64,000 bases of DNA from Escherichia phage vB_EcoM_YN3. Both the position numbers and the translations under genes were made by a program. The DNA lies in the sequence record PV763136.1. The stretch is one strand, 5' to 3'. The notes below the pieces were generated by a model that did not search any database, was not told where the DNA came from, and saw only the letters and a list, made by a program, of their open reading frames with translations. Within the stretch, counting starts at the first letter, position 1. The number at the start of each line of letters is the position of its first letter. Below are positions 34,837 through 41,133 of this stretch, one piece after another.

Positions 34837-36021
34837 TCAAGCTTTAGCTAAAATGGCGCTAAACTCTTCACCAAACTCTTTTACAATCTTCATCAGGTTT
34901 GGGTATGCTTTGATCAGCCGAGCAACGATCTTGTCCCGGCCTTTACCAATAAGTAAGGCATTTCCTAGGGCGTTGGGTTTCATCATCGCCATAAAGACTG
35001 AGAATACAAAGTCTCGGTTCTCATCCTTGAAATTTTCCCAAAGGAAATCAAGGAAGTTTGCCACGCAGCTAACAAGATCTTCGTCTGAGACACTTGCATT
35101 TTCCATCATATTCCGAATAGCAATACAACCTTCAGACCCAAGAATCCACAAAATATCTGGCTGCTTAGGACCTACATACTCTTTGCAACCCCCTGCCATA
35201 ATCCGACCTATTTCTGGCAAGTTTCGTTTCTTGGTGTGGTAGGTCCAGATTTCTACCGCTGCAGTGTGACCAATAGCACCTTGCAGAAGAACACGAGCCA
35301 TAGCGTCAGAAATAATACCGCTGTCAAAATCGTGCAGGATGTCAGATGCAGCAACCCAAGATCGCGGTGTAGCAAAAGATGGACAATTAATCTCAGCCAT
35401 AGCCTCATAATTATCGATAGCTGATGGAACTCTTTTCAGATATCCAATTACAGAGGAATGCACACCATTAAGGAATGCGTAGTCCTCAATAAATACCTCT
35501 GCACTGCTTGTAACTTCTACAATGATAAAGCGGTTAGCCAGAGGGGCTTCGAGCGCTGAAAGAACAGCACCATCTGTAGCACGGTTACCTGCAGCTACAA
35601 AAACAGAGCCCTTAGGAAATGCATAGGTGCCGCACTTGTGGTCGAGCATAATTTGCATTGCAACCTTCTGCAGGTAGTTATCTGCATGAGTAAGCTCATC
35701 CAGAAAGATAATTCCGCTCCAGTCCGAGTCTGCAGGCCAAAATTCTGGAATTGCAAACACTGTGCGTGTAGTTCCATCTGCCTCTACAGGGATAGGTAGT
35801 CCAGACAAGTCAGCAGGATCTTTATCTGACAGCCGCACGTCAACCAGGTTGTCATCTCGCTCACCGAACATATTGTCTGCGATCTGCTTCATCACCTGGC
35901 TCTTTCCCACACCCATTGGTCCTAAAATCAGGACAGATCGGTTATGACGCTGGGCAAACTGAATGATAGCTGGCAACTCACGGACAGTGATTTGACCACT
36001 TTCAAATACGTTTCTTGACAT
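34837..36021 (-). CDS. MoxR/CobS-like AAA+ ATPase
   Basis: Walker A GPMGVGKS; Walker B IIFLDELTHAD; AAA_5-like size and layout. Confidence 0.75.
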   Translation of the reverse strand: MSRNVFESGQITVRELPAIIQFAQRHNRSVLILGPMGVGKSQVMKQIADNMFGERDDNLVDVRLSDKDPADLSGLPIPVEADGTTRTVFAIPEFWPADSDWSGIIFLDELTHADNYLQKVAMQIMLDHKCGTYAFPKGSVFVAAGNRATDGAVLSALEAPLANRFIIVEVTSSAEVFIEDYAFLNGVHSSVIGYLKRVPSAIDNYEAMAEINCPSFATPRSWVAASDILHDFDSGIISDAMARVLLQGAIGHTAAVEIWTYHTKKRNLPEIGRIMAGGCKEYVGPKQPDILWILGSEGCIAIRNMMENASVSDEDLVSCVANFLDFLWENFKDENRDFVFSVFMAMMKPNALGNALLIGKGRDKIVARLIKAYPNLMKIVKEFGEEFSAILAKA

Positions 36022-36290
36022 TAGTAAAAGTCCTCTACTTGTGTGTAAGTGTTTTCAAAGTTTTCCAAAACAGATATCACATCGGATCTGTCAATATCAT
36101 ACGTGACTCTCCAGTTGTACGCAACCCTTTCTGCTGTTGCCTCTTCTGGCGCTAGTCGTCTGCTGGCATAAAAGAGTGTTGGAGTACACTTTCTTGCTTG
36201 CCCTCTAACTTTCCCATAATAATATCTGTGAATATCTTTGTCAAAATTTAACTCTTTTTCTGCACGAAGTTCATATTGCTGGTATAACAT
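36021..36290 (-). CDS. Hypothetical protein (89 aa)
   Basis: ORF. Confidence 0.45.
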   Translation of the reverse strand: MLYQQYELRAEKELNFDKDIHRYYYGKVRGQARKCTPTLFYASRRLAPEEATAERVAYNWRVTYDIDRSDVISVLENFENTYTQVEDFY

Positions 36291-36334
36291 CTCTACTACT
36301 CCTTAAGCAGCATCCTTGCCGCCATTCCTGCCCA

Positions 36335-36715
36335 CTAAAATGCAGTCCGAATCCAGACAAGGTTCTTATCTGCCCAATCGTAGAGGCAAGTCATTGCACT
36401 ATTGAATTGCTCGCACGGAGGATAATCTTCTTCCATCTGGCGCATAGCAGATCCTTGTGGGTAAAGCTCCCGTGCTGCAAACCACGCATCGTAGTCATCC
36501 ACGGTGTCGAAGTAGTATACAACATCCTCCAACTCAGGATCGAACTTTGAACTATCAGGATCCAGTTGTTCAGGGAACTTGGATCGTAACTTGCCAGCCA
36601 CAATACTTGCCAACTCGCTAACATGCTTATTGTCCCACTCAACTAACTTCCCGTCTTCAGTGATGCGTCCTAACCACTGATCATGAAGGTCAACTGTTGT
36701 CTTCCACTGAGCCAT
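36335..36715 (-). CDS. Hypothetical protein (126 aa)
   Basis: ORF. Confidence 0.5.
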   Translation of the reverse strand: MAQWKTTVDLHDQWLGRITEDGKLVEWDNKHVSELASIVAGKLRSKFPEQLDPDSSKFDPELEDVVYYFDTVDDYDAWFAARELYPQGSAMRQMEEDYPPCEQFNSAMTCLYDWADKNLVWIRTAF

Positions 36716-36717
36716 TA

Positions 36718-38630: not shown

Positions 38631-38658
38631 TTCTTCACCTACAGAGCACAAGAGACAA

Positions 38659-39639
38659 CTCATGAATCTTGAAAAATATTATACACCAGAAGAGTTAGAG
38701 CGCCTGCTCAAAAAATATAGACGCAAACAGAATAATGCACGGAAACGGGATATAGAGTTCAACCTGTCATGGGAAGAATACCTCCTATTTGGTAAAAAAC
38801 TTTTAGGAGATGGAGTGTGCGATTACACCCTTATACCTTTTGACATGCACACAGATGAAAACGGGCTGGGAAATCCTTTCTATCCATCTCTGGAGCGGAT
38901 AGATGATGAAGGTCCTTACTCAATTGATAATTGTTGTGTGGTGGGATTGAGGTGCAACGCTCTGAAGGACTGTCTGGTAGATAAAAAGACTGCAATCTTG
39001 ATAAAAGATAAAACTGATCGAAAAATTGTCCAGCAGATGATGCTCCACCTGAGCGAAGAGCGTATGGAGAAATTGAAAGGTGATTATACTTTTGAAGATT
39101 TCATCTTGCAATACGGGACAGAAGAAGATAAACTAGCACTATTTGACGAAGAGGAGGAAGATATGTCACCAATGCAGGACTTTAAAAATTTCATGGCTGA
39201 TCGTGCAGCCAACAAACACATTTCAGACATCGTAAACGAGACTGTGACAGAAGAAATTGAAGAACAGAACTCTGAAGAGGAAAAAGATCCTCAGGAGGTC
39301 GAAGAGGATATTACAGAAGAAGTTCCTGCACTGCCTGATGATATTGAGATTGCTAAGGCTTACACTTTCTATTGTCAAACGTTCTACGATGCAGGTATGA
39401 AAGTTGATCTGTCGTTCAGCCAATTTAAGAGTTCGTATATTCGCAAATGCTGTGCTTTAACTGGTGAACGTCTCGGAGCTGGACTTAAACCACTGTTGGT
39501 GACCGACTGGAATAAAGGTTTCACTAAAGGAAACTTTATGGTAGTATCTCCAATTATGGAGAAAGCTATGACAGATCTTATGAAGACCACCCGCATGACA
39601 ATGACCGAGTTGGCAGGTATTTTCAAACACGTTAAATAA
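38659..39639 (+). CDS. HNH_3/AP2-like domain protein with acidic linker; catalytic His apparently replaced
   Basis: ERIDDEGPYSIDNCCVVGLRCNALK resembles the HNH_3 pattern DHID...N..NL......N with R in place of H; Glu/Asp-rich central region. Confidence 0.45.
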   Translation, partial: LMNLEKYYTPEELERLLKKYRRKQNNARKRDIEFNLSWEEYLLFGKKLLGDGVCDYTLIPFDMHTDENGLGNPFYPSLERIDDEGPYSIDNCCVVGLRCNALKDCLVDKKTAILIKDKTDRKIVQQMMLHLSEERMEKLKGDYTFEDFILQYGTEEDKLALFDEEEEDMSPMQDFKNFMADRAANKHISDIVNETVTEEIEEQNSEEEKDPQEVEEDITEEVPALPDDIEIAKAYTFYCQTFYDAGMKVDLSFSQFKSSYIRKCCALTGERLGAGLKPLLVTDWNKGFTKGNFMVVSPIMEKAMTDLMKTTRMTMTELAGIFKHVK

Positions 39640-39651
39640 TGACAGGGGCCA

Positions 39652-41133
39652 ATGGCCCCTTCTGGAGTTTTAATGGATAGCAGAAGTTCAGAAATCATTG
39701 CCTCACAGAAAGATGATGCCCTGAGAATGTTGCAAGCTGCACGTATGTATCTTCTTGAAAAGCTGCCGTTTTATGGCACGCTACTGTCAGGGTTGCAGTT
39801 CGTAGAAAACCACACATGGTGCTCCACCATGGCAACCGACCATAAACGCATCTATTACAGTCCTGAGTTCATTATGGGGTTGGCTGATGAACGCAAGGCT
39901 ATTCTTAAGGCTTCTCTAACTGACGGGCAGTTTGAGATGGCTGAGGTTTTCTATTCCCCCAAATCTGTGAAAGAGGTGGCCTTTCTTCTGTCACATGAGG
40001 TGGGACATATTATCTGTGATCACCTGGTCCGTGGTAAAAGCTTTGAACCGGAACTGTTCAACATTGCTTGTGATCACGTCATCAACACAGGCCTTGTGGT
40101 TGACTTTAGCAAGCCTCCTTGTGTTTTCTTCCCAAAAGGGAAAAGCACTACGTTCGTAAAAGGTAAGCCTTTTGGCTTCTTAGCCAGCTGCTACTGCGAC
40201 ATGAAGTTTCATGGATGGATTGCTGAGAACGTTTATGCAGTTCTTGATAAGCAAAGAGATCAAAATAACGGTAAAAGTAAGAACGGTAAAGGTGAGAACT
40301 TTCAAGGTGATAAGCGACAAACCGATGATCACATGAGTGGGAACGGTGGCACTAGTGATGATCTTGGAAAGGCTATGGGGTATGATCAGCCACAACCTGT
40401 AATCAGCCAATCTGATAAAGATCAGGCCATGCAGGACTCTGGTGACATGCTGGAGGCAGCAATGCAAGCTTCCGGAGGTCGTTGCCCTGAGGCGGTTCGT
40501 GAGTTTGTCAAGAACAGAGGTAAGCCTGTAATCAATTATATAGACATCATCAAGCAACGCATGTTGTCTAAACGAAAGGCCGAACTGACCTACAGAAAAC
40601 CTGGTCGCCGATCTGGGTCTTTGACCAGCACAATGCGAAAAGTTGGAGCTATAAACAAGAACCAACACGTTATTGTTCCGGGTCGTAATCCGGAAAACAC
40701 TATAGATATTGTGGTGGCTTTAGACGTTTCTGGCTCGATCTCTCAAAGAACTTTAAAGAAAATGTTCAATGAAATCACCGGATTGTGCAACCTGTATAAA
40801 GAGTTTAAGGTTACAATGTTCTGTTGGTCAACTGAAGTCGGAGAGGTTAAAGTATATACTCGCGGCAACATAGACGAGATGATCAACTATGAGGTCCACT
40901 CAACATGGGGCACAACAGCTGCTTGCGTGTTCGAGTATCTGGATGCCAACATACCAAATGCAAAAGATGTCATCGTCCTGACCGACCTATACTTTGAGCA
41001 TAACTTTGAACAAAAGGCTGTTGACAACAAGTGGAAAAAGTACGATACTTTATGGGTTCTCACCGAAGGGTATAATAAAAATTATATCCCTAGCTTTGGT
41101 AAAACTGTGGAATTAATCGAGTACGCTAAGTAA
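39652..41133 (+). CDS. Metallopeptidase-like (HExxH) plus von Willebrand factor A domain protein, typical MoxR partner
   Basis: HEVGH zinc-binding motif; VWA MIDAS-type motif VVALDVSGS; alternative start at Met8 (39673) also has an RBS. Confidence 0.7.
   Translation: MAPSGVLMDSRSSEIIASQKDDALRMLQAARMYLLEKLPFYGTLLSGLQFVENHTWCSTMATDHKRIYYSPEFIMGLADERKAILKASLTDGQFEMAEVFYSPKSVKEVAFLLSHEVGHIICDHLVRGKSFEPELFNIACDHVINTGLVVDFSKPPCVFFPKGKSTTFVKGKPFGFLASCYCDMKFHGWIAENVYAVLDKQRDQNNGKSKNGKGENFQGDKRQTDDHMSGNGGTSDDLGKAMGYDQPQPVISQSDKDQAMQDSGDMLEAAMQASGGRCPEAVREFVKNRGKPVINYIDIIKQRMLSKRKAELTYRKPGRRSGSLTSTMRKVGAINKNQHVIVPGRNPENTIDIVVALDVSGSISQRTLKKMFNEITGLCNLYKEFKVTMFCWSTEVGEVKVYTRGNIDEMINYEVHSTWGTTAACVFEYLDANIPNAKDVIVLTDLYFEHNFEQKAVDNKWKKYDTLWVLTEGYNKNYIPSFGKTVELIEYAK

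Follow-up and report, generated by a model that had tools for sequence, protein, structure and literature searches.

MoxR-type AAA+ ATPases and partner proteins with a von Willebrand factor A (VWA) domain make up systems such as CbbQO, NorQD and CoxDE, which are generally chaperones of assembly or maturation. NorQ-NorD, CobS-CobT and CoxD-CoxE are examples linked to the insertion of cofactors or metals or to enzyme maturation. In this report we analyzed a pair of this type in Escherichia phage vB_EcoM_YN3 (PV763136.1), within a 64,000-nucleotide stretch of DNA hereafter called the window. The pair consists of a 394-residue MoxR-type AAA+ ATPase (34837..36021, minus strand) and a 493-residue protein (39652..41133, plus strand, as the longest open reading frame (ORF)) in which a zincin-like domain with an HExxH motif (DUF2201_N) is joined to a VWA domain (DUF2201) with a metal ion-dependent adhesion site (MIDAS), hereafter the peptidase-VWA protein. 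An earlier note, made from the sequence alone, had proposed these two ORFs, their domain assignments and their separation by 3.6 kb on opposite strands. Both ORFs were found at these positions, that of the ATPase intact, both assignments were upheld, and the coordinates agree with the separation. A phage pair with the same domains, a MoxR ATPase with a metallopeptidase-fused vWA cochaperone, was previously described in group 2.2 jumbo phages (e.g. ASV44729.1 / ASV44728.2) by Iyer, Anantharaman, Krishnan, Burroughs & Aravind (2021, Viruses 13:63; PMC7824862), who proposed a function in virion assembly.

The window is part of a Vequintavirus (rV5-like) genome, and a 7-kb region containing the two genes shares 95-97% identity with over 100 Vequintavirus coliphage genomes, in which GenBank records name the pair 'MoxR ATPase' and 'metallopeptidase / VWA-like domain protein'. 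Like the pair of Iyer et al., it combines a MoxR ATPase with an N-terminal zincin fused to a vWA domain, and the rV5 proteins are approximately 24-28% identical (tblastn) to homologues from Rak2-like and other jumbo phages. In a jumbo Klebsiella Alcyoneusvirus an adjacent operon was confirmed. Unlike the jumbo-phage pair, the genes studied here reside in genomes of the 136-140 kb size class and are split onto divergent arms. Resemblance to CbbQ-CbbO, NorQ-NorD, RavA-ViaA and Rea1/midasin is seen in the match of the AAA domain to midasin, the match of the VWA domain to NorD and midasin, and the intact MIDAS. The VWA partners of the CbbO, NorD, ViaA and midasin type are, however, without a peptidase domain, and the ATPase differs from the CbbQ/NorQ/RavA group by a C-terminal helical region of approximately 120 residues. 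The p618 (MoxR) and p892 (VWA) proteins of the Acidianus two-tailed virus are, as cited in PMC7824862, likewise a virus-encoded pair; they belong to an archaeal virus, contain no peptidase domain and are linked to extracellular tail development.

We consider it moderately probable that the two genes represent a conserved ATPase and peptidase-VWA module that has come apart, with an accessory function in counter-defence or host interaction, rather than in core replication or morphogenesis. The genetic evidence comes from a HIDEN-SEQ preprint, in which transposon insertions were mapped in Bas54, phage MaxBurger (bioRxiv 10.1101/2025.11.20.689424). The corresponding Bas54 region is 95.8% identical over 7 kb with like neighbours, bas54_0063 being the orthologue of the ATPase gene and bas54_0055 that of the peptidase-VWA gene. 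On E. coli K-12, 60/64 and 81/86 TA sites of the two genes were hit, both genes and all of their neighbours were classified as 'Non-essential', and a fitness class was assigned to neither gene. On the uropathogenic E. coli (UPEC) strain CFE311, bas54_0063 mutants vanished (log2 fold change -7.23, adjusted p < 1e-5) and bas54_0055 mutants were depleted (log2 fold change -2.20, p = 0.0009, adjusted p = 0.009; supplementary table). The seven genes in between, 0056-0062, were unaffected, and both module genes were among the 27 of 227 Bas54 genes that were significant on this strain. Supplementary sheets S6 and S7 carry identical CFE311 data, so that the comparison concerns CFE311 and does not cover CFE303. 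The main text states that bas54_0063, the direct orthologue of the ATPase gene, is specifically required to overcome cloned DS-28, a two-gene predicted defence system from a small, plasmid-associated family; bas54_0140 (100 residues) is reported to be likewise required. The preprint treats the ATPase alone, and the depletion of bas54_0055 receives neither comment nor follow-up there.

With this orthologue and the published jumbo-phage pair, the view in the earlier note that the role of such genes is uncharacterised is outdated. Among the roles it had listed, the targeting of a host factor is supported by the DS-28 data, and the dispensability of the two genes on K-12 speaks against virion remodelling. 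Bacillus phage 0305phi8-36 was viable, with a growth defect, when a deletion covered one MoxR-like gene and one vWA-like gene (PMC3357382). Literature searches for MoxR in Vequintavirus or Schitoviridae, and for an N4-like ATPase together with von Willebrand, found no reports, and mentions of DUF2201 were incidental only. The CRISPRi-ART paper and an N4-like Pectobacterium phage paper contained nothing on the module genes. NCBIfam and PADLOC scans yielded no informative match.

The linkage of the two genes was quantified in other genomes. Eighty IMG/VR loci were seeded on the ATPase alignment, and 70 were informative after exclusion of 10 cut by contig ends. The peptidase-VWA gene lay immediately downstream of the ATPase gene on the same strand in 67 of these 70, with a median ORF gap of 76 nucleotides. 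Two of the remaining loci were Vequintavirinae-like with the split divergent arrangement, and one had a radical-SAM-like ORF downstream. The latter ORF (CxxxCxxC; contig L024, 2938-4004) occupies the usual peptidase-VWA slot and may be an insertion into the operon. Conversely, when 17 loci were seeded on the N4-like sub-alignment of the peptidase-VWA protein, the ATPase gene was directly upstream in all of them, and neither these loci nor the other phage loci examined contained a peptidase-VWA gene without the ATPase. A tblastn search against 50,697 phage genomes gave matches to the peptidase-VWA protein in 651 records and to the ATPase in 812 records, with near-matched counts per host genus (peptidase-VWA/ATPase: Escherichia 210/213, Pseudomonas 100/108, Pectobacterium 26/26, Cronobacter 17/17). 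The operon was found in N4 (phage AlfredRasser), where the orthologues are bas69_0057 and bas69_0055, and likewise in a Plateaulakevirus, in jumbo phage of Klebsiella, in a phage of Bacillus and in an N4-like phage of Salmonella. It is also carried by bacterial chromosomes, where the genes were adjacent in 53 of 73 informative loci of a GTDB genome scan. The suggestion that the two proteins normally form a two-component machine is thus backed by near-universal operonic adjacency elsewhere, and the co-occurrence check that had been proposed for it came out with the pair linked in nearly all phage loci.

Adjacency in one operon, which holds for nearly all relatives that do not belong to the rV5 branch, is absent from the window, where the strand switch falls at 38520/38662. 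The split was found only in Vequintavirus, Avunavirus Av-05, Henunavirus pEa_SNUABM_55 and contig L012 (Vequintavirinae); the operon is intact in Serratia phage ChuuTotoro, Enterobacter phage F2M1E and contig L013. In ChuuTotoro the operon occupies one arm of the equivalent divergent region and an Srd-like gene the opposite arm, and relative to this phage the Srd-like gene and ATPase arms are swapped in rV5-like phages. In the window the Srd-like gene (38662..39639, plus strand; 'anti-sigma factor' label, PHROG 3118/1400) is the first gene of the plus-strand arm and serves as the inversion marker; the TTG at 38596 is the start of its longest ORF. Comparison of these gene orders indicates that the split is probably a derived rearrangement, produced by a single inversion and confined to some Vequintavirinae genera. 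The ancestral state would have been an operon with the ATPase gene followed by the peptidase-VWA gene. In the rV5 branch, an inversion of the Srd-like-to-ATPase segment across the bidirectional promoter would have moved the ATPase gene to the other arm; its two breakpoints would fall in the short spacer between the ATPase and peptidase-VWA genes and past the Srd-like gene. After such an event the shared divergent control region would continue to drive the ATPase and peptidase-VWA genes alike, and these now lie 1-2.5 kb from the shared promoter-like region. The dN/dS values for the ATPase and peptidase-VWA genes were 0.024-0.055, indicating strong purifying selection on both.

The 141-nucleotide divergent intergenic region contains a back-to-back pair of predicted sigma70-like promoters (38560..38630, both strands), as the earlier note had anticipated. 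The minus-strand site is TTGACT-17-TATAGT (38588->38560) and the plus-strand site is TTGACA-17-TAAGAT with an extended -10 TG (38602->38630). Both are consensus matches, and the hexamers of both are kept in five Vequintavirus genomes. The top-scoring sigma70-like site of the region, TTGACA-17-TATTAT (36216..36244, minus strand; 11/12 consensus positions), lies within an 89-residue ORF, 195 nucleotides upstream of the ATPase start, and the record of phage ECML-10 has a promoter feature there. A GC-rich hairpin (AGGGGCC-AAT-GGCCCCT, 39645..39661) is located between the Srd-like stop at 39639 and the probable peptidase-VWA start at 39673. An Rfam scan of the whole window returned zero RNA families.

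The ATPase matches PHROG 1297 'ATPase' (E 4e-110) and contains the complete set of Walker A, Walker B, sensor 1, arginine finger and sensor 2. Walker A G37xGKS41 (nucleotides 35899-35922, minus strand), Walker B D108-E109 (35695-35700, minus strand), N146, R147, R164 and R220 were invariant among 25 homologues. Its scores were below the Pfam cut-off for every AAA model (AAA_5 17.1 bits, cut-off 22; bpMoxR 15.7 bits, cut-off 27). Its homologues number in the thousands. Precomputed matches to AAA_3 and AAA_5 exist for homologues at 31-35% identity, and the ATPase of the bacterial operon is 32% identical to it (E 6e-37). Because of these sub-cut-off scores combined with matching homologues and the bacterial operon partner, the window ATPase is, by transitive homology, a divergent member of the MoxR type (helix-2-insert clade). 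In fold comparisons solved MoxR ATPases were closest, with CbbQ and NorQ as structural nearest neighbours, and the top PDB sequence match was to the AAA domains of midasin (E 8e-12). In profile searches of the kind that had been suggested, the ATPase was below the AAA_5 and bpMoxR cut-offs and its partner above those for DUF2201_N and DUF2201. The 89-residue ORF next to the ATPase gene (36021-36290, minus strand) is named 'ATPase / MoxR ATPase' in PHROG 13164 and in several GenBank records; it is no fragment of the ATPase, as it has no similarity to it (E 0.49) and no Pfam match, and the label looks like annotation spill-over from the neighbouring gene.

The peptidase-VWA protein matches DUF2201_N (98.2 bits, cut-off 23.2) and then the VWA-like DUF2201 (44.0 bits, cut-off 26.4), in this order from N to C terminus. 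PF13203 was present in 65 of 65 retrieved homologues, and PF09967 in all except one (P0062). The HExxH motif at residues 115-119, H124, the MIDAS residues D358xS360xS362, T421 and D445, as well as A139xD141, were invariant in 36 of 36 diverse homologues. In the window the HExxHxxxxH zinc-binding motif, HEVGH followed by H124, is encoded at 39994..40023 and the MIDAS motif DVSGS at 40723..40737 (plus strand), with T421 and D445 further downstream. The HExxH motif is inside a predicted helix (106-121) that comes after a three-stranded sheet and before a second helix (133-151), and this predicted topology fits a zincin. Family members gave sub-threshold profile matches to Peptidase_M48 (15/36), SprT-like (11/36), DUF5700 and PhageMetallopep, and the family profile gave weak PDB matches to the minigluzincin MJ1213, HtpX and BepA. 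The VWA fold was confirmed and its MIDAS (DxSxS, T, D) is complete; the matches include the NorD VWA domain and the MIDAS domain of midasin. A peptidase-like fold around the HExxH motif is suggested indirectly, by profiles and topology; the match lists of fold searches with the full-length model were filled by VWA folds alone. The true start of the protein is probably the ATG at 39673 (M8, yielding 486 residues) and not 39652, because related phages are annotated with a 486-residue product, M8 is nearly invariant in the alignment, a GGAG Shine-Dalgarno sequence (39665-39668) lies 5 nucleotides upstream of this ATG, and the hairpin at 39645-39661 is ahead of it.

Several public names for this gene are misleading. 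PHROG 1314, labelled 'HNH endonuclease', is the zincin-VWA (DUF2201) family, and the wrong name has been carried over into RefSeq records, NC_022323, NC_019517 and NC_048771 among them; elsewhere the gene goes by 'anti-sigma factor' or 'DNA repair ATPase'. In the record of ECML-10 (L002, OL631479.1) the peptidase-VWA ORF at 7638-9125 is intact and has no coding sequence feature, ORF numbers 12-13 being missing.

The gene neighbourhoods of the module are consistently non-structural and consist of early/middle or nucleotide-metabolism blocks. Its neighbours in the window are rIIA/rIIB, a helicase and a SleB-like hydrolase. In N4 they are RNAPII, dCTP deaminase, thymidylate synthase and rII genes, the block being downstream of the RNAPII genes; middle transcripts of N4 serve replication and late genes morphogenesis (PMC4496689). 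Exonuclease, thymidylate synthase and MazG genes were found next to it in uncultured phages, and replication genes in Plateaulakevirus. The 'DNA helicase' gene of the window (29300-30700, minus strand; coordinates by offset from MaxBurger) is four genes downstream of the ATPase gene on the same strand. Its orthologue bas54_0068 is a third host-dependent gene in this block, non-essential on K-12 and strongly conditionally essential on CFE311 (log2 fold change -6.32) in the preprint data (bioRxiv 10.1101/2025.11.20.689424).

A number of observations weigh against a single counter-defence module. The peptidase-VWA phenotype is approximately 30-fold weaker than that of the ATPase, the second validated anti-DS-28 gene is bas54_0140 and not the peptidase-VWA gene, all genetic data come from a single preprint, and DS-28 is itself a predicted system. 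The ATPase gene precedes an SPFH/Band-7 protein gene in the N4-like Vibrio phage PJN101 (L196, 6358-7659) and an unrelated ORF in phage Va1, and approximately 15 bacterial loci, mostly of the Sulfurovum type, had no partner within 6 kb of the ATPase. Bacterial homologues are located near Hsp15, thioredoxin, ferrochelatase and Lon, with no obvious defence islands, and because of such housekeeping-like surroundings the ancestral role may have been general protein or cofactor maturation. The inversion model, for its part, is supported by just three markers (Srd-like, ATPase and peptidase-VWA genes), because no homologues of the small intervening rV5 genes were found in operon-type relatives. Some of these points also speak for functional uncoupling, to which we give a small chance: the ATPase would act alone or with another partner, e.g. 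bas54_0140, and the peptidase-VWA protein would have a separate minor role. The unequal phenotypes (-7.23 vs. -2.20), the identity of the authors' two validated anti-DS-28 genes (0063 and 0140), the ATPases with other downstream partners or none, and the strong sigma70-like site just upstream of the ATPase gene are what such uncoupling would predict. It fits poorly with the depletion of both genes on CFE311 across seven unaffected intervening genes, with purifying selection that is equally strong on both, with the constant company of the ATPase wherever the peptidase-VWA gene was seen in phage loci, and with the position of both genes within 1-2.5 kb of one divergent promoter region. Room is left for partial uncoupling because the peptidase-VWA phenotype is weaker and ATPase-only arrangements exist.

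Two further explanations assign the pair a maturation function. It is improbable, in our estimate, that the proteins insert a cofactor or metal into, or otherwise mature, a phage or host enzyme (e.g. of nucleotide metabolism), the DS-28 phenotype then being indirect. The recurrent thymidylate synthase, dCTP/dCMP deaminase, MazG and exonuclease neighbours, the thioredoxin and ferrochelatase genes that adjoin the bacterial operon, the structural proximity to CbbQ and NorQ, and the NorD VWA domain among the VWA matches would all be accommodated; but chelatase and insertase partners are without a peptidase-like domain that has an invariant HExxH, neither gene is needed or was assigned a fitness class on K-12, and the phenotype is bound to one cloned two-gene defence system. 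More improbable still is a virion-assembly chaperone and protease, as Iyer et al. (PMC7824862) proposed for the same domain pair in jumbo phages, taking p618 and p892 of the Acidianus two-tailed virus as the analogue, even with MoxR-VWA systems in general acting as assembly or maturation chaperones. Their proposal is at odds with the dense insertions on K-12 and with the host-strain-dependent requirement of the Bas54 orthologues, which in the preprint maps to a cloned defence system; the neighbouring rIIA/rIIB, helicase and nucleotide-metabolism genes, and in N4 a location outside the late morphogenetic genes, point in the same direction.

Under the preferred reading of an accessory counter-defence or host-interaction module, a specific mechanism can be proposed by analogy with CbbQ-CbbO, NorQ-NorD and Rea1/midasin. 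The MIDAS site of the VWA domain would capture a target protein by one of its acidic residues, the hexameric ATPase would remodel or extract the MIDAS-bound target, and the fused zincin domain would cleave it. Such a target would come either from the host, as an immune component, or from the phage, as a factor that needs processing. More specifically, and tentatively, the ATPase and zincin-VWA protein may form an ATP-driven, MIDAS-targeted protease that dismantles or processes a bacterial immune protein, in E. coli that of DS-28. As part of the same proposal, possible if doubtful, a bacterial housekeeping operon would be the source of the module, which rV5-like, N4-like and jumbo phages and many uncultured ones would then have kept.

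Some additional observations were made during the analysis. In Sulfurovum sp. CS9 (L174, 4559-5947) the ATPase gene is overlapped upstream by a gene for a 462-residue protein without Pfam matches; this protein and the SPFH/Band-7 protein of PJN101 may be alternative ATPase adaptors. The ORF at 37620-38561 of the window (minus strand, likely start 38520) is annotated as 'putative alpha 1-3 fucosyltransferase', a name that is unsupported by Pfam, NCBIfam and PADLOC, the sole match being PHROG 12338 (unknown function). Sixteen 'Campylobacter phage' records (MG065635-MG065682, host C. jejuni) are 95-99% identical to rV5-like coliphages in this region, and their C. jejuni host attribution looks doubtful. 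Positions 1-1600 of the window, in a segment that runs past its left end, are non-coding with a low GC content of 0.38 and contain iteron-like direct repeats at 224-248 and 555-680 (ACTGTTTACA-type), together with several inverted repeats at 725-980. Such repeats point to a replication origin or to some other essential cis element.

The annotation of the genes, the publication of the pair for phages and the reported phenotype of the ATPase orthologue were already known. New in this analysis are the quantified linkage, the evidence for the split as a derived rearrangement, probably by one inversion, and the co-depletion of the partner gene in a published screen. At least 650 sequenced phage genomes carry the module, N4 included, as do many uncultured phages and bacteria. 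If the proposed mechanism is true, no AAA+/VWA/peptidase machine for counter-defence would have preceded this one, and a function would be provided for a conserved N4 gene pair. The evidence narrows the module to an accessory, host-dependent function, probably in counter-defence, rather than a morphogenesis factor, and the ATPase and peptidase-VWA protein deserve joint study whether or not their genes are adjacent.

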